The notes under the pieces were generated by a model, which was not told the origin of the DNA, did no database searches, and was given only the letters and a program-made list of their open reading frames with translations. Made by a program: the position numbers and the translations under genes. From contig JAGVVV010000006.1 in assembly GCA_018304615.1 (NCBI GenBank), forward strand, positions 1-58,926: 58,926 nt of DNA. The letters are read 5' to 3'. The stretch comes from Candidatus Aenigmatarchaeota archaeon. Its GTDB lineage: Archaea; Aenigmatarchaeota; Aenigmatarchaeia; CG10238-14; SCSR01. The stretch's first letter is position 1. Every line of letters starts with the position of its first letter. This document shows, in pieces, positions 15,486-37,678 of the stretch.

Positions 15486-15501
15486 GTGGGAATTGAACCC
15501 A
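15486..15501 (-). repeat. tRNA T-arm fragment
   Basis: gtgggaattgaaccca, 15/16 match to 21873-21888. Confidence 0.55.
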
Positions 15502-16199
15502 TCATAACAATTTCTTTCCTTTTCTAATTAACCAGATTGCACTTACAAGTATTACGAGTTCGGACCAGAAGTCCCAGTGGAACCAGTATGCGGTAAGGAG
15601 CTCCATCCTGGTTAGCCCAGCGTATATTGAAACTCCTATTTCAGATACGAAGAACGTGACATAATTCATAAGGAAAACGATCACTTCAAATGCGGCTACT
15701 CCAATCAACATTATCTTATAACTCTTCGAGATTTTGTCATGAAAAGGAACCCAAACAACAAACTGAAGCTCGTCGTTTCCATAGAAATTGTGGTAAGAAA
15801 ACCCCATAGAAGATTGGACCATGTATAGAAATGCCCACTTCCTCGTGGGAATTCAAAAGTTCTTGAGCCTAAAACAGAGTAGTTTGATTCGTATGGCTTC
15901 CAAATCATATCGACAAAGATTACTGTTATCGCTATAGCAAAAAGGAAAATTCCTATTGAAATCCATTTCCAATTTTTATCAAATTTAAAGTTCAAAGTTG
16001 GACGGTATACTTCATATAACAGGCCGGCAAGAACAATGAGAAAAGCAGCGTTAAAAGGATGGATATAATTAGAATATGGATAAGGTGGAAGATTTGCATC
16101 TTTGCCAATGACATTTGTCCATACAGGCTGCCAGAGAACCCAAAGCAAAATTACTACAAAGAAGAAAAATGCGAAGATACGGTTTTTAATCTTTTCCAT
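15502..16199 (-). pseudogene. Polytopic membrane protein split by a frameshift near 15725
   Basis: Overlapping same-strand ORFs whose hydrophobic parts join at FLFMTKS/SKSYKIML. Confidence 0.6.
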
Positions 16200-16232
16200 T
16201 AATTTTAATTTTATTTTATCGGGATAAAAGTA

Positions 16233-16256
16233 TGCGCGTGTAGGGATTTGAACCCA
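16233..16256 (-). repeat. tRNA 3'-end fragment (T-loop plus acceptor strand), att-like
   Basis: tgcgcgtgtagggatttgaaccca, 20/24 match to 21865-21888. Confidence 0.7.
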
Positions 16257-16313
16257 TTAAGAATCAATTTAATTATATAAGTTGCAAAATTTAAATTTAA
16301 TTTAAGCGGTGGA

Positions 16314-16955
16314 TTGAACATGGCGGACACAAAAAAACCAACTTCAAAGAAACCAACACTTGTTGTTGTGCTTCCATTCATAATTATCGGAGCCATTTTT
16401 GCAGTGTTCGTTTTAGATCAAACGGGATACATAGATATTCCTTTTGTGGATATCCCTAATTTTATGGACGTCGTTTTGGAAATGAAGAGTGAAGCATGCA
16501 TCGGCGTTCCATATGCTGGTTTTGATTTTGCTCCTGGATTAATTCCTTTGCTGAATCCTGACTGGAACGGGGTACGTTCTGGGTACACTTTCTATCTCGG
16601 CTCAGGAAAAGGATTTCCTCCCATGGGACTAATCCTTGGCATTGATGGTATGTTGAGAGGAACGCCAACGGGAGCAGGTGATAATTTCGAAGTCTGTGTA
16701 AAAGACGTTGGCGGAAATTCTATATGCAGACTAGTCCATCTGGAAGTGAAGTCTGGATGTACCACTACAACTACCACTACTAGCACAGGAAAATGTCCAA
16801 CCGTGTTAAATCCACCATGTCGTTCAACACAAGGCGGCGTTGGGGTATCTGGAGGCATTGTACCTGCTTCATGCAATTGCCCAAGCGGCACTACTTATGC
16901 GGGGATGGACAACATGGCACCGGGCGGTCCCTATAAAATCTGCACATGCAACTAA
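16314..16955 (+). CDS. TM-anchored protein with putative Ig-like domain, Thr linker and Cys-rich C-terminus
   Basis: GFPPMGLILGIDGMLRGTP (putative-Ig-like); six-Cys tail. Confidence 0.75.
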   Translation: MNMADTKKPTSKKPTLVVVLPFIIIGAIFAVFVLDQTGYIDIPFVDIPNFMDVVLEMKSEACIGVPYAGFDFAPGLIPLLNPDWNGVRSGYTFYLGSGKGFPPMGLILGIDGMLRGTPTGAGDNFEVCVKDVGGNSICRLVHLEVKSGCTTTTTTTSTGKCPTVLNPPCRSTQGGVGVSGGIVPASCNCPSGTTYAGMDNMAPGGPYKICTCN

Positions 16956-16999
16956 ACTGAAGATTCAACATAGAATTTGAATTATTGTGTGCAGTATTG

Positions 17000-17036
17000 T
17001 GCGGGAGGTGAGAACGACGGTTAACCGTAGTGCGTA
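17000..17036. repeat. 37-bp direct repeat, copy 1 (tRNA-Leu 3' 11-mer plus ACGGTTAACCGT palindrome)
   Basis: Identical to 20175-20211. Confidence 0.9.
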
Positions 17037-17060
17037 GTGACTGCTCCAACATTTGGCTGT

Positions 17061-17091
17061 TTGTTTACAGCTGTAAATAATGCGGGAGGTG
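17061..17091. repeat. 31-bp direct repeat, copy 1 (20-bp near-palindrome plus tRNA-Leu 3' 11-mer)
   Basis: 30/31 identical to 17841-17871. Confidence 0.9.
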
Positions 17092-17224
17092 TGCTACTCT
17101 ATAAAAAGAGAAGCGGATATACTGCTTCGTTTTTCATAGCGATGCGGACTTTGTGTTTCGGCTGAAAAATAATATAGTAAATGGACATTGGAAAGTAGTT
17201 AAATGCGGAAAATCTTAAAAAATT

Positions 17225-17713
17225 TCATTGTTGGTATATTTCTTGATACATTTCTGCTTTCTTTTCTAACCTTGATACATTTTCTTTAGTAAGAGTTCCT
17301 TTACCAAACACTGATTCCCAGCGGGTTTTATGAGTGTCAGGATTCCTATTCATCAAATAGCCTGCCGTACCGCCATATACAAAAACAGGAGCGCCGATAA
17401 TTTCAAAGAACAAAAGCCCTAATTTAGAATTACCAGTTATTACATCATAAATCAAACCAATTGCAAGAGGAATACCAACTGCCATCATTGCAAGGGCTTG
17501 TTTTCTCTTACTCTTCTTACTGAAGTAAAGTTGACCATCTTCTACAAGACTTTTCGCAAAAGTATACCTTGAATTGTTTATAGCTTGCATTTTCTGTGTT
17601 TGAAATATTCTTTCTTTTTCGATTGAAGACAAAACTGATGGTCTTTCTTCATCCAATTCCGACACTAATTGTTCGTATGACAAGATATGCTGTTGCATAA
17701 TTTCACTAATCAT
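17225..17713 (-). CDS. Hypothetical 2-TM protein (cassette cargo)
   Basis: 162 aa; AGGTG SD upstream. Confidence 0.7.
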   Translation of the reverse strand: MISEIMQQHILSYEQLVSELDEERPSVLSSIEKERIFQTQKMQAINNSRYTFAKSLVEDGQLYFSKKSKRKQALAMMAVGIPLAIGLIYDVITGNSKLGLLFFEIIGAPVFVYGGTAGYLMNRNPDTHKTRWESVFGKGTLTKENVSRLEKKAEMYQEIYQQ

Positions 17714-17744
17714 AATTAAGCACCTAAAAGTATTTTACATTATT

Positions 17745-17871
17745 ACCGCATCGTTTTCCGTAGAGATGCGGGAGGTGTGTCTTCTCACGGTATTCCAGTG
17801 CGGACTTCACGCACATACATACCGTGGTGATGCGGACTTTTTGTTTACAACTGTAAATAATGCGGGAGGTG
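17745..17871. repeat. Cluster of hairpin modules with two tRNA-Leu 3' 11-mers (17767-17777, 17861-17871)
   Basis: ccgcatc/gatgcgg, cacggtat/ataccgtg and gtgcg/cgcac stems; second 31-bp repeat copy. Confidence 0.85.
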
Positions 17872-17890
17872 GGCATTAGACTTTAGTCAT

Positions 17891-18790
17891 ATGCTTTGCT
17901 TTTTGACAGCATTTAACCAAAGTCATATGCGGAACACCAGGGACAGAAACACTTTAATCTTTATCAGCCATTTGTTATTTCATGGAAACAAAATACCACT
18001 ATTTAGAGGAACTAGCACACGACAAGAAATCGAAGATCTAAAAAGATATTTAATAGAACATTTTGATATGAACACTGCACAAACAAAAGGTTTTTATAGA
18101 CTGTCTGAAATTTCTAAGTCATCCTTATATCCTATGGTAGAGGCAACAAATGTTCAGTTAACACTCGGTGTTCCTTTACAGTTTATAGCTTATGCAATCT
18201 CTTATCCTGGCAAGCGAACTATAGGATTGGAGACATTTAATGATTTTGATATGGCTGGTGATCATCCTTTTAGTTTTGACTTTATAGATTATTGTCGAGT
18301 AAGAGATAGGACTGAGACTTTAAAGCTTGGAGGATCAGATTGGTTTAATGGTGACAATAAATCTAATTCTGAATTTTATGCTAAAGTTATAGCACCTTTA
18401 CTTCATTCGACATTACAATCTGTTCTACCACCAGATCTTATAAAAGAAGAAAGTTTAGCTCATGAATTACAACATCAAAGAGATTTTGACGAAATAGTTT
18501 CAAGATTTCCGTACCCTTTAAATGAAATTGTTTATGTTTATTTGTTTCAGGAAACTGAAATTGGCGAAGATAGAGCTGTAGAATTTGGGAGTCATATAAA
18601 GAAAAAAGATTATTCTTCATTACAAACATTAAAAGAAAAATATGAAAAAGACGAGCTTCTTGAATATTTTAAAGGTGCATTAAGAAAGCATAGATTAAAA
18701 ATTTTCAAGAGATGGGGTATTAGACTTTTCCTTCGTATGACTGGTGACAGATTTCAGTATTTGCATGATTTACTGCAAGCCTATTTCTAA
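17891..18790 (+). CDS. Hypothetical protein with HExxH (cassette cargo; start uncertain)
   Basis: LAHELQH; AT-rich; annotated 5' end overlaps repeat modules. Confidence 0.6.
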   Translation: MLCFLTAFNQSHMRNTRDRNTLIFISHLLFHGNKIPLFRGTSTRQEIEDLKRYLIEHFDMNTAQTKGFYRLSEISKSSLYPMVEATNVQLTLGVPLQFIAYAISYPGKRTIGLETFNDFDMAGDHPFSFDFIDYCRVRDRTETLKLGGSDWFNGDNKSNSEFYAKVIAPLLHSTLQSVLPPDLIKEESLAHELQHQRDFDEIVSRFPYPLNEIVYVYLFQETEIGEDRAVEFGSHIKKKDYSSLQTLKEKYEKDELLEYFKGALRKHRLKIFKRWGIRLFLRMTGDRFQYLHDLLQAYF

Positions 18791-18804
18791 CATTTTTGAT
18801 TATT

Positions 18805-20028
18805 TTAGAAAAATAATAAGCTATCAACTAATTCATAAAGAGCATCTTTTTCTCTTACAGATTCAGGAACTTTTACTTGTCTTATTGTAGACCAAGGAAC
18901 TAGACTATTTCCACTTTTCAACATAATTATTTCATCGCTTTTCTTTCCTCTTACTAATTCTTCGTCCCATCCTTCTCTAACATCAGGCTTTCCTTTTAAC
19001 CATTTTATATCTGAATATCCTTCTCGTTCCAAATCTTCAGGAACCATGACAAATCCGTAATCTATTGTCACATGCCTTGGGTTACCAACTCTGAGAGCAG
19101 TTTCAGTTGCAAGTCGTATGAACTTATTTCTGTATGTTTGAATAGCTTCTGAATCTGCAGAAGGTCCTTCAGGAGCATATTTATTGTAATGGCTAAATTC
19201 ATTTGTAAAAATTCCAGCCGAATAAGAATGTCCATAATATGCTGATTGCAAATTTCCATCTTTGTCAATAAATGGAAAGTGATGACCATTAGGATTATGT
19301 TCAGATTTATCTACCCAAACTCTTCCTCGTCCATTAGGAAGTTGCGGACCATAAAATCTGGCCCATTGTCTTAAATCCATATCCCAATAAGCAACTATTT
19401 GGCCAATTTCATTTTGCTCTAATGGTTTGTCCGCATCCTTATATTCACCTTCATAATTCCAATCACCAACAGCACATGCACCTACATGTCTCACTGGTTT
19501 TGATCTTGTTATTCCTAATGTTCGCATAATAAGTTCGTCAGACACATCAATTTCCTCTATATCACCTGAACGAATATTACAAGTCTGCAACAATAATGAA
19601 AGCAATTCCTGCTTTGAAAGGCCAATGAGAAAATGTTTAGATCTTTCATAATCAAACGGTTCTCTTTGAGGTGGTATGAATTTATCGCTATTTTTCTCTC
19701 TGAAGTAGTTTGCCGTTCTAACAATCTCATCTCTAGACAAATTTCTTACAACATAAGAAGTTGAAGGTTTAGGATAACCCAAATAAAATCGATTTTCCAA
19801 CCAACATGACCAAAGCCCAACCAAACCATCTAAAGTACCATCGTGAATAGATAATTCCCAACCAGATTTATGATACATTGGCATTCTTCTTTCTGAACCT
19901 TGTGCTTGTAGTTCTGCTTGGCTAAGAGTTGCATTTGCAGCTACCATTAACATGGCTCTCATTGGATCGTACTGTGCTGTCTTTTCTATTATTTTTCCAG
20001 GAGTTTGTTTGTACATTTCTTTTGTCAT
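18805..20028 (-). CDS. Hypothetical soluble protein (cassette cargo)
   Basis: 407-aa ORF; no family recognised. Confidence 0.75.
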   Translation of the reverse strand: MTKEMYKQTPGKIIEKTAQYDPMRAMLMVAANATLSQAELQAQGSERRMPMYHKSGWELSIHDGTLDGLVGLWSCWLENRFYLGYPKPSTSYVVRNLSRDEIVRTANYFREKNSDKFIPPQREPFDYERSKHFLIGLSKQELLSLLLQTCNIRSGDIEEIDVSDELIMRTLGITRSKPVRHVGACAVGDWNYEGEYKDADKPLEQNEIGQIVAYWDMDLRQWARFYGPQLPNGRGRVWVDKSEHNPNGHHFPFIDKDGNLQSAYYGHSYSAGIFTNEFSHYNKYAPEGPSADSEAIQTYRNKFIRLATETALRVGNPRHVTIDYGFVMVPEDLEREGYSDIKWLKGKPDVREGWDEELVRGKKSDEIIMLKSGNSLVPWSTIRQVKVPESVREKDALYELVDSLLFF

Positions 20029-20174
20029 ATATTCACTAACAGAAAAACACGATAGTTAAAGATTTAAGCTTTGTTTGAGCCGATTTTGGAGAGCATGCTG
20101 CAAGTGATATTGGACGCTTCATAAAAACTAATTTCGATTGAATTGAATCAAAACCTATTGAATTAAATCAATTA

Positions 20175-20232
20175 TGCGGGAGGTGAGAACGACGGTTAAC
20201 CGTAGTGCGTATTTCTTTACAGTTGTAAACAA
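20175..20232. repeat. 37-bp direct repeat, copy 2, plus inverted copy of the TTGTTTACAACTGTAAA module
   Basis: 20175-20211 equals 17000-17036; 20216-20232 is the reverse complement of 17841-17857. Confidence 0.9.
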
Positions 20233-20255
20233 TATGTTCCCAAAAACTCTTAAGG

Positions 20256-21788
20256 TTGTGCTCTGTCAGAAATCAATCCATAGTACAAGATTTAAAGCTT
20301 CTTATTCATTGTATTTTTATGATTTTTGAAGCTGTCGAAAAAGTCAATGAAAAATTACAGAGATTCGTTCCAGATTTATATACGGATATCGATGCTTCAT
20401 ATTTCCTTAAGAAAACAAAGGACAAGGAATTTCTTTTTGGTTCCAGCGAACTGGATGTAAAAAAATTGGAAGACAGGGCGAAGATATACGGAATTTCTCC
20501 AAAAGTCCTTGAAGATATTAGAGGTATAGCTGAGAAATCCGGACATTTCAAGTATTGGCCATTCATTCTAGGGACATATTATGTCGATGGAAAGAGAATG
20601 TCAATGAACGACATAAACGCGACAGATCTCATATTCATTGCTTCACAATTGGGTGCGCCCAATATAATTTTTTATGCGTTAAATTTACCTCCTCTCTCAC
20701 CACAGTGGTACTTATCCGGTGTCTTGCCACTCAGAGCAATGTATTTTGCCGCGAGGAGAGGATGGTGGAGGCATGAATCAACACATGCCAGACATCATCA
20801 TTCCATGGCTGAGTATATGGCAATCATGAAAGAGCAAAAAAATCTCAAACATGCAATATCAAAAAATCCTAGATTTTTTACTCAGTCGAGATCAAATACA
20901 AGATTGGAAGATCAACTGAGTGCAATGCAGTCCAGTTATTACAGGGAAAGTTTGTCAGATGCAGGACTCACAATACATGAGGCCGGTAGCGAGGAGCTTC
21001 TGACGAGATGGCAGAGCCTTAAGGAAGCAAGAGGTCCTAGAGAGAAAGCATTGGCAACTTTTGCACTTGGCTTGTATTTCGAATATGCTCCTTTCAAGGG
21101 GTTGCAGAACTTGCTCATAGATTTCAAGGACAAGGTGGATGAAAAGTTTCCACATGATCCTCGCTTAAGGAGGGCGGTAAAAGTAGGATCCGTTGCCTCG
21201 ATGCTCGCTTTGCCTTTTTACGGACTTGTTACATATGCTCCCGCAGCAGCCCAGCAATTGCATGACATTCTCGTTCAAGAATACAAGTATGCAGACATAG
21301 ATCCTGAGAGAATAGACAGCGCACTTTGGCGAGGCTTTGCATATTATTTCGTCACAGTTCTGGCAGCGTTTTTCAGTTCGCATAGAAAAGGTATTTTGGG
21401 ACAAAAGAAGCAGAAGGTATTAGAAAAGACTGGAAAGCATTTGAGGACCCGCGAGTACAAATTCCCATACACATACAATCCTGCGAAGTCATTTTACAGG
21501 CATGTAAAGACAGCGCTTTACCTAAACAAAGTCTGGGGCAATATCCCAAATTACAGACAGCTTCAATCGAGCAGCGATGTAGATGGTGTCATCTCGGAAG
21601 TCGATGCAAGACTGCGTGGAAAGATGGGCGACAATGACAGAACATTTACAATAAATACATTGGGAGACTCTTTACAACCATATACAAGAGCTCATGAATA
21701 TCAATTTCCAGTCGACATTTATCCAAAGGAACTTTTCCTTGCAAATGTTTATCTCAACTTGAAAGATTTGTTTGAAAAGATGCAATGA
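20256..21788 (+). CDS. Hypothetical protein with HExxH and TM segments (cassette cargo)
   Basis: WWRHESTHARHH; probable ATG start at 20319. Confidence 0.7.
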   Translation: MCSVRNQSIVQDLKLLIHCIFMIFEAVEKVNEKLQRFVPDLYTDIDASYFLKKTKDKEFLFGSSELDVKKLEDRAKIYGISPKVLEDIRGIAEKSGHFKYWPFILGTYYVDGKRMSMNDINATDLIFIASQLGAPNIIFYALNLPPLSPQWYLSGVLPLRAMYFAARRGWWRHESTHARHHHSMAEYMAIMKEQKNLKHAISKNPRFFTQSRSNTRLEDQLSAMQSSYYRESLSDAGLTIHEAGSEELLTRWQSLKEARGPREKALATFALGLYFEYAPFKGLQNLLIDFKDKVDEKFPHDPRLRRAVKVGSVASMLALPFYGLVTYAPAAAQQLHDILVQEYKYADIDPERIDSALWRGFAYYFVTVLAAFFSSHRKGILGQKKQKVLEKTGKHLRTREYKFPYTYNPAKSFYRHVKTALYLNKVWGNIPNYRQLQSSSDVDGVISEVDARLRGKMGDNDRTFTINTLGDSLQPYTRAHEYQFPVDIYPKELFLANVYLNLKDLFEKMQ

Positions 21789-21864
21789 ACGTTAGAACAA
21801 TATTTCAATTCTATCAATGGCTGTGAAATTATTTATCGAACCTACGAACTACGAGAAACCGTTG

Positions 21865-21950
21865 TGCGGGAGGTGGGATTTGAACCCACGTATGCACTAA
21901 GCAACTGGCACCTCAAGCCAGCGGAATTGACCAGGCTATCCGACCCCCGC
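21865..21950 (-). tRNA. tRNA-Leu(GAG)
   Basis: GCGGGGG acceptor, CUGGC-UU-GAG-GU-GCCAG, long variable arm, GUUCAAAUC, A73. Confidence 0.95.
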
Positions 21951-27923: not shown

Positions 27924-28532
27924 ATGGATTGGACTAAACTACCAGAAGATATTATAATAGAAAAAACTTCGAACAACCTCAAACAAAGAGGTGTAGAGAC
28001 ATTCATTGTTAACACGCGCGACGAAGCGAAGAAAAAAGTTTTGGAGCTGGTTCCTGAAGGGTCGGAAGTCATGAACAATACATCAGTTACTCTGGATCAA
28101 ATTGGGGTGTCAAAAGAAATCTTGGAAAGTGGAAGGTACAACGCATTAAGGAAAATTATTATGTCAACCAGTGATAAGGAACAAAGGCAGAAATGGAGAA
28201 AGATTACAGCTACTGCAGAGTATTCTATTGGCAGTGTTCAAGCTGTCACAGAAGATGGACAAGTTGTCATTGTGTCAAACACCGGTAGTCAATTATCACC
28301 TTACGCTTCAGGTGCAGCAAATGTTGTCTGGGTCGTCGGAACGCAAAAAATAGTTAAAAATTTGGATGAAGCTTTTAAAAGAATAAGAGAATATACGCTT
28401 CCTTTAGAGAGTGAACGAATGAAGAAAGCTTACGGAGTTGGAAGCAACATAAGCAAAATTCTGATAATCGAAAAGGAAGTCGTACCTGGAAGAACAAAAC
28501 TGATTTTTGTAAAAGAAAATCTTGGATTCTGA
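27924..28532 (+). CDS. LUD-domain (LutC/YkgG-like) protein
   Basis: SVTLDQIG, AVTEDG...SNTGSQ, VVGTQKIV, ENLGF. Confidence 0.88.
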   Translation: MDWTKLPEDIIIEKTSNNLKQRGVETFIVNTRDEAKKKVLELVPEGSEVMNNTSVTLDQIGVSKEILESGRYNALRKIIMSTSDKEQRQKWRKITATAEYSIGSVQAVTEDGQVVIVSNTGSQLSPYASGAANVVWVVGTQKIVKNLDEAFKRIREYTLPLESERMKKAYGVGSNISKILIIEKEVVPGRTKLIFVKENLGF

Positions 28533-28618
28533 TTTATAAAGAATGTTTTTCAAATAAAATGAATGGTTGAAATTTTAAAAAAGGTTCGAAGCGAGACTTG
28601 AACCAGATGGGTATATCT

Positions 28619-29754: not shown

Positions 29755-29909
29755 TGCTCCCACCGGGATTTGAACCCGAGTTTGCTGCTTTCGTCTCAGC
29801 CTGTCTTCGTCTGCTTTCATCTTTGCATCAAACCTTTCTGAGCAAAACTCGAAAGGGCCTTAGACGGTCTTAATGACCTGTATCCTTGACCGGACTAGAC
29901 GATGGGAGC
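29755..29909 (-). tRNA. tRNA-Glu(UUC) with three BHB introns (27/28: 29860-29879; 37/38: 29803-29849; 45/46: 29782-29794)
   Basis: Removing 20+47+13 nt gives a 75-nt cloverleaf: GCUCCCA acceptor, CGGCC-CU-UUC-GA-GGCUG. Confidence 0.88.
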
Positions 29910-37075: not shown

Positions 37076-37678
37076 ATGAAGAAAGAAAAAATAATCGATT
37101 TCTTGATTGAAGCGAACAAGCTGAAAGACTTGAAAAGAACAGGATGGGTCGCTCTGAAAGTGAAAAATTCAGAACATGTAGGAGATCATGTTTACTCTAT
37201 GATCATGCTGGCATCAGTCCTTGCAGACAAGCTGAAAGTAAACAAACAAAAATTGATGGAAATGATTTTAATTCATGAATTGCCTGAACTTTACGTTGGC
37301 GACATTGCTACTATTTTCGGAACAGGAACGATACACAAAACTGGTTACATGTATACACTTGATAAAAATGGGAAAATAAAAGAGTTCAAGGGAAACAAAC
37401 GTAGGCTCGAAGAAAACGCAATGAAAAAAATTTTAAACATGTTGCCAACAAATGTAAGGAAGAAATATTACAGGCTTTGGAAAGAGTTTGAAAAAAATAA
37501 AACTCCGCTTGCGCACGCCGCTCACGATTTAGATAGACTGGATCATACCGTTCTTGCATTGCTGTATAAAGACAGGACAAAAATAAAACTCGATGGTTTC
37601 ATCAATGTTGAAAGCAGGTTGAAAACAAAATATGCCAAAGAACTTCATAAGTTAATCAGAAAAAGATTTTACAAATAA
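37076..37678 (+). CDS. HD-domain phosphohydrolase (HDDC2/YfbR-like)
   Basis: LKRTGW, EHVGDH, IHELPE..VGD, DLDRLD. Confidence 0.88.
   Translation: MKKEKIIDFLIEANKLKDLKRTGWVALKVKNSEHVGDHVYSMIMLASVLADKLKVNKQKLMEMILIHELPELYVGDIATIFGTGTIHKTGYMYTLDKNGKIKEFKGNKRRLEENAMKKILNMLPTNVRKKYYRLWKEFEKNKTPLAHAAHDLDRLDHTVLALLYKDRTKIKLDGFINVESRLKTKYAKELHKLIRKRFYK

Follow-up and report, generated by a model that had tools for sequence, protein, structure and literature searches.

An array at tRNA-Leu(GAG) in an Aenigmatarchaeota genome: a probable tRNA-seeded, integrase-less island formed by serial integration

The array at the tRNA-Leu(GAG) gene

The window, that is, the whole stretch of 58,926 nucleotides analysed here, comes from a Candidatus Aenigmatarchaeota archaeon, a groundwater organism with a very small genome that is presumably DPANN or Nanoarchaeia-like. 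Its interval 15486-21950 contains an intact tRNA-Leu(GAG) gene at one end and, downstream of it, a row of displaced fragments of the 3' end of that gene. The features are as follows, from the tRNA outwards:

21864-21950, - strand: intact tRNA-Leu(GAG) (ARAGORN; Rfam tRNA model, 48 bits; core match)
21865-21875, + strand: reference att core, the last 11 nt of tRNA-Leu(GAG)
21803-21863, - strand: tRNA-proximal arm (trailer) of the innermost unit, from sequence comparison with relative G009
20319-21788 (open frame from 20256), + strand: cargo gene, 489 aa, all-helical
20175-20229, + strand: junction module, with core 20175-20185, hairpin 20186-20211 and palindrome 20216-20229
18805-20028, - strand: cargo gene, 407 aa, with no family match in Pfam, PHROG or PADLOC
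17891-18790, + strand: cargo ORF of up to 299 aa, true start uncertain (ORF list)
17767-17871, + strand: gene-less unit, with core 17767-17777, long hairpin, palindrome 17844-17857, 3 nt, and core 17861-17871
17225-17713, - strand: cargo ORF, 162 aa (ORF list), with no family match in Pfam, PHROG or PADLOC
17000-17091, + strand: gene-less unit, with core 17000-17010, hairpin 17011-17036, arm 17037-17080 (palindrome 17064-17077) and core 17081-17091
16314-16955, + strand: cargo ORF, 213 aa (ORF list), with no family match in Pfam, PHROG or PADLOC
16233-16256, + strand: remnant of the final 24 nt of tRNA-Leu at 83% identity (an old distal att, now decayed)
15502-16199, - strand: outermost cargo, a hydrophobic protein in two overlapping ORFs (15502-15822 and 15711-16199)
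15486-15501, + strand: T-arm-only tRNA fragment, matching the T arm of tRNA-Leu at all but one of 16 nt, and possible outer limit of the island
186-196, + strand: further exact, co-oriented core close to the start of the contig, with a hairpin and then a 110-aa ORF after it

The repeated 11-mer, TGCGGGAGGTG on the + strand, is the reverse complement of the last 11 nt of tRNA-Leu(GAG), and comprises 3 nt of the T stem, the 7-nt acceptor strand and the discriminator. Sublocation classes at tRNA genes were reportedly described by Williams in 2002. Exact copies, all on the + strand, start at 17000, 17081, 17767, 17861, 20175 and 21865, with a seventh at 186. The five displaced, co-oriented copies that an earlier note on this DNA had listed are all confirmed, and the copy at 186 is additional. 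These seven matches compare with 0.30 expected in the window, and none of 100 shuffles gave seven. From 17000 to 21865, consecutive cores are spaced by 81, 686, 94, 2314 and 1690 nt. The array as a whole has ORFs in both orientations between the copies (three on the + strand and three on the - strand), or only hairpins and a palindrome. Genome-wide, the core occurs 13 times, two of these being the ends of tRNA-Leu(GAG) and tRNA-Leu(TAA).

The two T-arm-containing fragments claimed at 16233 and 15486 are also present, the first with 2 mismatches in 16 over its T-arm-like part (16241-16256). T-arm-like matches in the window amount to five, against 0.06 expected, although two of the five lie within true tRNA-Ala genes. 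The arrangement typical of a tRNA-integrating element or genomic island is found here: an intact tRNA and, downstream, five exact 11-nt repeats and two decayed longer fragments, all co-oriented.

Cargo genes

The six ORFs of the array have no Pfam match over the cut-off and no PHROG match, in keeping with their earlier description as unrelated ORFans. However, that term does not suit the two longest, for which 15 (489 aa) and 65 (407 aa) homologues were retrieved. One homologue of the 489-aa protein is labelled as a CPR bacterium, and the source names for the 407-aa protein include Nanoarchaeia, Aenigmarchaeota and a CPR bacterium. The 489-aa protein has no PADLOC match either; its AF2 model (pLDDT 85) gave no PDB fold match at E values of at most 0.001. 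For the 299-aa ORF there is only a Flavodoxin_5 match below threshold (17.3 bits against a cut-off of 27). By eye, the translation of the 213-aa ORF has an N-terminal hydrophobic stretch and a tail rich in Cys and Thr. In the outermost cargo, 13 extra nt follow position 15729 in the Logan contigs of all four runs compared.

The cargo ORFs are rare accessory genes: the 489-aa gene is present in one of 117 other genomes of the order, and the 407-aa gene in two of 370 other genomes of the class.

Junction modules and a second array on tRNA-Glu

The cores are embedded in conserved modules. A 37-nt core-plus-hairpin is 100% identical at two junctions (20175-20211 and 17000-17036), and 17840-17871 is 97% identical to 17060-17091. 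All three sites of the palindrome TTTACAGNTGTAAA in the window lie within the array (6 strand-matches, where 0.14 would be expected). On another contig of the genome, C8, positions 37195-37234 have 93% identity to the arm 17037-17077 and are preceded by a core of tRNA-Glu type; the palindrome is common to the Leu and Glu core types.

The Glu-type cores belong to a second array, of greater size, whose core is the terminal 11 nt of tRNA-Glu. Copies of the tRNA-Glu(CTC) end are found on contigs C8, C9, C12 and C20, followed by a GGGGATTTT box and then by TTTACAGNTGTAAA, with single genes between them. Some Glu-type cores also lie 5' of the tRNA-Glu gene on C8, and C12 has a Leu core at a distance of 95 nt from a Glu core. 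Intact-looking palindrome-core-box-palindrome sites occur within the arrays at C20 4437-4501, C8 45304-45404 and C12 9606-9686. The C8 genes between modules include those for a rhomboid protease, a GTPase, a P-type ATPase, a GNAT protein and TBP, the last being a second copy; eight of the 12 ORFs are on the strand opposite to the modules, as against three of six in the window. Both flanks of the C8 array have syntenic counterparts on the related contig L036, with 6.5 kb of other content between them instead of 18 kb.

The full Glu-type module is present in three of 118 genomes of the order (with 11, 4 and 1 copies), and a 27-nt stretch of it is identical in another genus. One C8 module carries a 33-nt deletion relative to locus L034. 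At locus L042, the modules lie between co-oriented genes, with the core just past a stop codon and the palindrome about 100 nt ahead of the next start. Folding of both DNA strands of three window modules and one C8 module gave only local hairpins and no attC-like end-to-end pairing, with z-scores from -0.1 to -1.7 for the window modules and of -2.4 and -2.7 for the C8 module. No Rfam family besides tRNA was found.

Recombinases in this genome and in its relatives

Six-frame profile searches of the whole genome covered Phage_integrase, SSV-type integrase, resolvase, Y1 transposase and TnpB models. The contig of the array matches none of these, which, as far as these models go, bears out the earlier statement that no integrase or transposase is visible in the window. 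In the genome, the sole match over the cut-off with any of them is a tyrosine recombinase, an Xer-like 276-aa frame on contig C11. SSV-type integrase (PF16795) and TnpB (PF07282) gave nothing over the cut-off and Y1 (HUH; PF01797) no match at E values of at most 0.1, so that the search for tyrosine recombinase and HUH genes suggested earlier yielded the former, in this one instance, but not the latter. Neither an SSV-type (partitioning) integrase element nor an IS200/IS605-type element or one of its hairpin-ended derivatives is supported by these results.

A tyrosine integrase of about 400 aa is widespread among relatives of the same order, with homologues at E values of at most 1e-40 in 22 of 60. 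Its gene starts downstream of a tRNA or T arm in 14 of 20 loci (13 within about 50-250 nt and one at about 660 nt), and no tRNA was detected in the other six. Six loci with at least 10 kb of sequence were searched for repeats. Four of them have one further copy of the terminal 11 nt of the tRNA on the same strand, 5.2, 7.6, 10.1 and 10.5 kb away (the last with 1 mismatch), and the other two have no repeat. The integrase-bearing elements span 5-10 kb, and in one of those bounded by the 11-nt repeat, GGGGATTTTAC is found inverted in both arms. In the metagenomic locus L033, the start of an integrase gene (Phage_integrase, 71 bits, with a zinc ribbon in addition) lies some 50 nt from the core of a Glu-type module.

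The window is tied to these elements by the trailer of its tRNA. Positions 21803-21863 are identical at 60 of 61 nt to the trailer of tRNA-Leu(CAG) in G009, a genome of another genus, where it lies ahead of a ~400-aa integrase gene, whereas the two loci are only 87% identical overall. The trailer has no similarity to those of G001, G018, G012 and G004. In three relatives with tRNA-Leu(GAG/CAG), the 3' end is present only once in 10 kb, and arrays are thus not general.

No homologue of the relatives' integrase, intact or fragmentary, was detected in this genome at E values of at most 1e-10. An integrase inside the element, as seen in 14 of the 20 loci of relatives, is accordingly missing here. 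With no such integrase in this genome, which is 89% complete, any current activity would have to come in trans.

Comparison with metagenomes and a genome of the same genus

Each of five runs, from four studies, contains 82-93% of the words sampled from the stretch, and for all cargo genes and most junction flanks there are contigs at 99-100% identity. In all four runs compared, the Logan contigs break at the repeated 37-mer (around 17029/17037 and 20204). In run X1, one contig joins 16228 to 20201 (depth 4.6, shorter side 58 nt, 90% likeness), and another enters 17037 from a Glu-type core, that is, from a different module. Runs X6 and X7 have a contig with an intact core before 16243 and a different left flank. 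These core-bounded variants are single assembled metagenome contigs placed at a likeness threshold below 95, and other organisms or repeats may be their source. As regards the strain comparison proposed earlier, the sequence of G001, of the same genus, differs from the first base after tRNA-Leu, on a contig of only 3.2 kb, and the metagenome contigs just described hint at breakpoints at cores.

Origin of the array

The repeats are best explained as tRNA-derived att cores at which material accreted, and the interval 15486-21950 is probably a tRNA-seeded island that arose by serial integration and is now integrase-less, with cargo-bearing units and solo att arms. Elements with a ~400-aa tyrosine integrase would recombine through their attP with the 11 nt that end a tRNA gene. 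Every integration would restore the tRNA and displace the earlier 3' end, together with the earlier insert, outwards, so that a succession of co-oriented cores would result from repeated events at tRNA-Leu(GAG). The distal att arm of such an element may correspond to core, hairpin, GGGGATTTT box (in Glu-type copies) and palindrome, and the palindrome 3-7 nt ahead of a core may represent the proximal arm. The integrase genes and most of the element content would have been lost since, leaving six cargo ORFs in five cargo-bearing units, and the two gene-less units may have lost their cargo between two palindromes. The serial accretion put forward earlier is supported by the integrases at tRNA ends, by the 11-nt bounds in relatives and by the shared trailer, and it is presumably the relatives' integrase family that made the array.

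For the 81- and 94-nt units, in which there is no gene, solo att arms are a better reading than cassettes. Considering that the integrase elements of relatives are of 5-10 kb, the units may be small because content was lost, and not because they follow another logic. Several observations fit serial integration less well. A remnant of the integrase would be expected but was not detected, which would require that every trace has gone or that the copies sit in the roughly 10% of the genome that is missing. The arms (the identical 37-mer and the 27-nt Glu stretch) are very well preserved, for which constraint or recent activity is a better fit than debris of long standing. Random deletion would not be expected to yield gene-less units with an end precisely at a core, and neither the Glu cores 5' of tRNA-Glu nor the adjacent Leu and Glu cores on C12 are explained by simple accretion at one tRNA.

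An alternative is a platform that is still active, in which non-autonomous units (one or two genes plus an att module of about 65-95 nt with a tRNA-derived 11-nt core) are captured, excised and reshuffled by an integrase acting in trans. The enzyme would be supplied by a co-resident element, a virus or the DNA of a neighbouring cell, and the tRNA gene would replace attI, akin to a chromosomal integron or CALIN. This is possible, although doubtful. Arms that are conserved while the cargo is unrelated, units of none to two genes, the same arm after either core, the intact-looking sites within the arrays, the L033 element at a module core and not at a tRNA, the contig-level hints of variants in X1 and X6/X7 and cargo families common to CPR bacteria and other DPANN all speak for it. 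On the other hand, no integrase of the required kind was found in the genome, no circular junction was observed, the read evidence consists of the single metagenome contigs placed at a likeness threshold below 95, the genes do not share one orientation and decay is plain in several fragments (16233, 15486 and the C8 module with the deletion). Moreover, segments of 81 and 94 nt are generally too short for tyrosine recombinases to excise as circles. The broader proposal, that an ultra-small archaeal clade has a tRNA-anchored counterpart of the integron, with arms interchangeable between tRNA-Leu and tRNA-Glu, cargo common to DPANN and CPR and a ~400-aa integrase in trans, is equally tentative.

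If the modules were small intergenic repeats, either MITE-like near a sequence resembling a tRNA 3' end or a shared terminator, promoter or operator block, the genes between them would be ordinary chromosomal ones and would never have been mobile. The ordinary cell functions between the C8 modules and the placement of modules at L042 would suit this, as would the palindrome, since a 14-bp perfect palindrome is a typical site of a dimeric DNA-binding protein. It is nevertheless very unlikely: module orientation is independent of gene orientation in both arrays, the cores equal the ends of adjacent tRNAs and follow the same 11-nt rule that bounds the relatives' elements, the C8 TBP is a second copy, and no transposase was found with the Y1 and TnpB models. 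A module confined to three of 118 genomes is also unlike the pattern of a conserved regulatory site. Less probable still is an assembly artefact in part, by which a metagenome contig was stitched over short exact repeats, mixing strains or loci. Contigs do break at the 37-mer, the X1 contig does enter 17037 from another module and two further cores sit at the ends of contigs (C17 186 and C20 9320), but the recovery of the stretch from five runs, with its cargo and most junction flanks, speaks against it, and chimerism may alter the order of units while it cannot create cores, arms or the same architecture on four other contigs.

Significance and comparison with known systems

DPANN archaea have tiny genomes. 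A literature search found no paper on tRNA-anchored arrays in them and little on their mobile elements, and the main text of a review of archaeal tyrosine recombinases (PMC8371274) contains no mention of DPANN or Nanoarchaea. The locus and its sister arrays link an integrase family found widely in the order with an att rule of 11 nt and show where rare accessory genes shared with CPR bacteria sit in such a genome, and the core, box and palindrome are defined DNA sites for a direct recombination assay. Were the units truly mobile in trans, they would represent a second, independent route to integron-like gene capture.

The closest parallel is found in the tandem arrays at tRNA genes. Elements with tyrosine recombinases are described as building arrays by re-use of one site, with thaumarchaeal att sites as short as 8 bp (PMC6563490), and loss of the integrase following integration is documented (PMC8371274). 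As in these arrays (PMC6563490, PMC8371274), the tRNA is intact at one end, displaced 3' fragments are co-oriented and the att identity covers only a short stretch; relatives have the integrase beside the tRNA, and content seems to vary between them. Unlike them, the units here measure 81 nt to 2.3 kb and hold none to two genes, as against 5-10 kb in relatives, no integrase fragment remains, and arms with a shared palindrome are conserved over two tRNA cores.

In the Tycheposon islands of Prochlorococcus, tRNAs likewise seed islands with scattered partial tRNAs (bioRxiv 10.1101/2020.12.28.424599). They share with the array a streamlined genome, older material pushed outwards, degenerate elements and niche or accessory cargo, and most islands have no intact element. 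However, Tycheposons are bacterial, with another integrase lineage, replication modules and att sites of about 40 nt, and the passages available from that preprint do not describe a conserved arm module of about 65 nt or gene-less units.

Finally, integrons and CALINs, including archaeal ones (PMC9668308), resemble the array in having mostly single-gene units with recombination-site-like modules of about 60-100 nt between them, in existing without an integrase and in carrying cargo of unknown function that is common to several domains. The 'integron-like logic' of the earlier note survives as an analogy only, and membership was rejected: the modules do not fold like attC, no IntI was found and the ORFs are evenly divided between the strands. 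The recombining core is instead the 3' end of a tRNA, and the integrase of the relatives targets tRNA genes and is encoded within the element, not as a fixed IntI beside attI.

The tRNA-Leu array and its junctions

The genome (785 kb in 22 contigs, of which the window is C17; ~39% G+C, 89% complete) contains tRNA introns and TBP genes, both archaeal features; related genomes span 0.3-1.2 Mb, and groundwater and soil metagenome runs contain the window sequence. With the Nanoarchaeia-type names among the homologues of one cargo protein, these features suggest a probable DPANN-type archaeon. The array is anchored on tRNA-Leu(GAG), whose last 11 nt (the Leu core, TGCGGGAGGTG as reverse complement) occur exactly and co-oriented at 186, 17000, 17081, 17767, 17861, 20175 and 21865. 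These seven copies, against 0.30 expected (0 of 100 shuffles gave seven), confirm the repeated tRNA end described in the earlier note, the copy at 186 lying beyond its list. Its observation that unrelated genes in either orientation, or only hairpins, lie between the cores also held, as the six cargo ORFs split 3/3 between the strands and the 81-nt and 94-nt units are gene-free. G+C along the array ranges from 0.31 to 0.43.

Features of the tRNA-Leu array in the window
21864-21950, minus strand: tRNA-Leu(GAG), array anchor
16233-16256: longer but decayed tRNA 3' fragment, 83% over 24 nt
15486-15501: decayed tRNA T-arm fragment, 15/16 of the T arm
15502-15822 and 15711-16199: cargo between cores, hydrophobic protein in two overlapping frames
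Cargo between cores: 213-aa Cys-rich protein
Cargo between cores: 162-aa ORF
Cargo between cores: 299-aa and 407-aa ORFs in one common unit
20319-21788: cargo between cores, 489-aa ORF

No tRNA in the genome ends like the variant at 16233. In all four metagenome runs compared, position 15729 is followed by 13 nt that the window lacks; by arithmetic, these would fuse frames 15502-15822 and 15711-16199 into one gene of ~236 aa, so the window copy would either be a variant with a frameshift or reflect a slip in assembly.

Every Leu core in the array is followed by a hairpin, and at three junctions the 14-bp palindrome TTTACAGNTGTAAA, perfect or near-perfect, comes next, completing what is referred to here as a module. 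Palindrome sites are found in the window only at 17064, 17844 and 20216 (0.14 expected), and in both gene-less units the gap to the next core is 3 nt. The 37 nt at 17000-17036 and 20175-20211 are 100% identical, 17060-17091 and 17840-17871 share 97% identity, and 17037-17077 matches at 93% a site on contig C8 of the same genome, where the copy stands behind a different core. Judged by these identities, the junctions of the Leu array are mosaics.

Sister arrays in the genome and beyond

Genome-wide, the Leu core is present 13 times. Two copies belong to tRNA genes, as the ends of tRNA-Leu(GAG) and the intron-bearing tRNA-Leu(TAA), one lies, judged from its context, inside a coding region on C8, and the other ten are intergenic (six in the window, two on C9, one on C12 and one at the end of C20). 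The tRNA-Leu(TAA) gene (C11, ~15801-15957, with a 71-nt intron) was called by relaxed ARAGORN only and falls below the Rfam gathering score; it shares its last 11 nt with tRNA-Leu(GAG), yet has no array behind it.

A second core family corresponds to the last 11 nt of tRNA-Glu(CTC), whose gene lies at C8 38132-38219, and is found on C8, C9, C12 and C20. Behind most Glu cores come a short hairpin, a GGGGATTTT box and then the same palindrome as at the Leu junctions, with one gene between successive copies. Their cargo includes a GNAT acetyltransferase, a rhomboid protease, a second TBP, a P-type ATPase, a GTPase, DsbA/DsbB and MerT. Modules are co-directed within each contig regardless of gene strand; on C8, 8 of 12 ORFs are opposed to them.

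Related arrays on other contigs
C8 37100-49700 (locus L013): tRNA-Glu(CTC) array, larger than that of the window, with cores flanking the tRNA gene on both sides
C12 9532-9686 (locus L015): composite junction of Leu core, hairpin, palindrome, Glu core, box and palindrome, with the cores 95 nt apart

The tRNA-end array is real and generalises across the genome. Among 118 genomes of the order, three contain the complete Glu-type module (11, 4 and 1 copies); it is also present in 15 metagenome stretches, where the genes around it are unrelated, and a 27-nt stretch of the module is identical in another genus.

Two further observations concern the same contigs. At window 29755-29909 (minus strand), tRNA-Glu 5' and 3' ends lie ~150 nt apart, the latter bearing the Glu core, which suggests a long-intron tRNA-Glu gene not called by ARAGORN. 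At C8 33967-35454 (L013 1968-3455), beside a DEAD-box helicase, a gene bordering the variable region encodes a 495-aa protein with the eukaryotic-type topoisomerase IB domains Topoisom_I_N, Topoisom_I and Topo_C_assoc.

Cargo genes

The proposal that the cargo consists of ORFans stands in part: no cargo gene matches PHROGs, but the 489-aa and 407-aa proteins have homologues, labelled CPR bacteria and other DPANN, and those of one cargo protein bear source names such as Nanoarchaeia. The 489-aa gene was found in 1 of 117 other genomes searched and the 407-aa gene in 2 of 370. The 489-aa protein yields a confident all-helical model (pLDDT 85, pTM 0.84) with no PDB fold match, and in its alignment W, R, H and E residues around WWRHE and HA.HH are invariant, so that it may represent an undescribed fold or enzyme. 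This ORF (489/510 aa), which lies beside the tRNA, was considered as a divergent integrase from a tblastn lead (E=1.4) to the catalytic part of an integrase from metagenomic locus L033, and was rejected, having no PDB sequence match and, for its model, 0 Foldseek matches at E<=0.001. For cargo function, nothing usable came from the protein atlas, and the one PADLOC match, a 35-residue, Cas10-like hit in a hydrophobic protein, was taken as spurious.

Integrases in the genome and in its relatives

The statement that the window holds no integrase was borne out, as the sole tyrosine-recombinase match in six-frame genome searches lies on C11. The proposed search for tyrosine recombinase or HUH genes thus returned this one Xer-like frame and no Y1 transposase over the cut-off; SSV-type integrase, resolvase and TnpB were likewise absent over the cut-off in these searches.

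In L033, a 431-aa frame with a Phage_integrase domain (71 bits) and a zinc ribbon begins ~50 nt from the core of a Glu-type module. Homologues (E<=1e-40) are present in 22 of 60 related genomes, with none at E<=1e-10 in the source genome, the same-genus genome G001 or the related genome G019. At 14 of the 20 genomic loci, a tRNA gene or T arm precedes the integrase gene, which points away from it across a gap of ~50-250 nt (13 loci) or ~660 nt (one). The partners are tRNAs for Leu (two), Phe, Asp, Asn (two), Arg, Thr (three), His and Ser, plus two T arms; ARAGORN called no tRNA at the remaining 6 loci. At L048 (G053:C2 23443-25889), two family integrase genes stand back to back, and no tRNA was detected in their vicinity; in a relative, three tandem tRNA-Leu-like genes at 215-nt spacing (L068, G002:C4 1666-2247) are whole genes and not att fragments.

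Six relatives were examined over 10-20 kb beyond the integrase. Four of them contain a single same-strand repeat of the tRNA's last 11 nt, at distances of 5.2, 7.6, 10.1 and 10.5 kb (one mismatch in the 10.5-kb case), and the other two contain none, so the att site of the family is an 11-nt core at the extreme tRNA 3' end. In one relative's element both arms bear GGGGATTTTAC, in inverted orientation, and another has a 12-nt arm repeat in four copies, so the GGGGATTTT box of the source genome is plausibly an arm-type site. Behind the window tRNA-Leu, 61 nt are 60/61 identical to the trailer of a tRNA-Leu(CAG) in G009, from another genus, where an integrase gene comes next. The two loci share only 87% identity overall, and four other relatives compared show no trailer similarity; a shared element arm, recent in its common origin, is the best reading of this trailer.

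Variability between relatives and strains

A related contig, L036, aligns with the C8 array on both flanks at 69-77% identity, with 6.5 kb of other content against 18 kb in C8, and G001, on a short contig, departs from the window at the first base after tRNA-Leu. Locus L039, a metagenome contig, matches the window at 97% to ~28577 (28520-28580) and continues into two box-plus-palindrome modules and genes absent from the window, by its sequence a further strain difference bounded by a module. In public metagenome runs, one X1 contig joins 16228, a few nt from the old fragment, to 20201, inside the module of the 20175 core; in another, a Glu-type core leads into 17037; an X1 contig also shares the window sequence from 21762 onwards and differs to the left. 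An X6/X7 contig (one data set, with identical tables) has an intact core before 16243 and a different left flank. The X1 and X6/X7 joints are single contigs at 90% likeness that may stem from other organisms or repeats, and these variants are hints only. Uncovered bins in X6/X7 and the low shares of runs X8/X9 carry no weight in this comparison.

Origin of the array

Serial site-specific integration at the tRNA, with the integrase and most content lost afterwards, explains the array most economically. Elements would have integrated repeatedly at the tRNA gene, the module starting at each core being the distal arm. The proximal arm would be the palindrome 3-7 nt before a core, which the true tRNA-Glu gene also has. 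If all that lies between two palindromes were lost, exactly both gene-less units would result. The serial accretion at a tRNA-derived core proposed earlier fares well; its small unit size may instead reflect content loss, as the 11-nt repeats of relatives lie 5.2-10.5 kb apart. A bolder and less probable reading would make the units non-autonomous cassettes mobilised in trans, given that the arms are excellently preserved and interchange between Leu and Glu cores, and that intact-looking palindrome-core-box-palindrome sites lie within arrays, all contrary to pure decay.

Other roles for the module fit less well. As promoter or terminator, it is a minor rival only, its orientation being independent of gene orientation in the window and on C8. 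A possible likeness of box and palindrome to archaeal origin-recognition boxes was set aside for a polarity mismatch and the many dispersed copies. A reading as attC or integron site was rejected, with no attC-type fold on folding and no support from Rfam, and a viral origin was rejected, as viral_contigs gave 0 stretches with the module pattern and no relative of the integrase.

Comparison with published systems

A literature search, with supplementary material outside its scope, found no published description of such arrays in DPANN archaea. Archaeal integrons are, in an excerpt of PMC9668308, mostly CALINs; the window array differs from integrons in lacking an attC-type fold and in its mixed gene orientation, and the "integron-like" label of the earlier note is an analogy only. 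Excerpts of other studies describe components of the integration account: tyrosine-recombinase elements re-use one att site in tandem, and short att sites are known (PMC6563490), integrase loss following integration is documented (PMC8371274), and tRNA fragments mark integration (PMC9897764). The tRNA-seeded islands of Prochlorococcus, with scattered partial tRNAs (bioRxiv 10.1101/2020.12.28.424599), resemble the window array, as far as the excerpt describes them, in their tRNA seed and partial tRNAs. The array is probably a variant on tRNA-seeded islands, with cassette-like mobility as a testable possibility.
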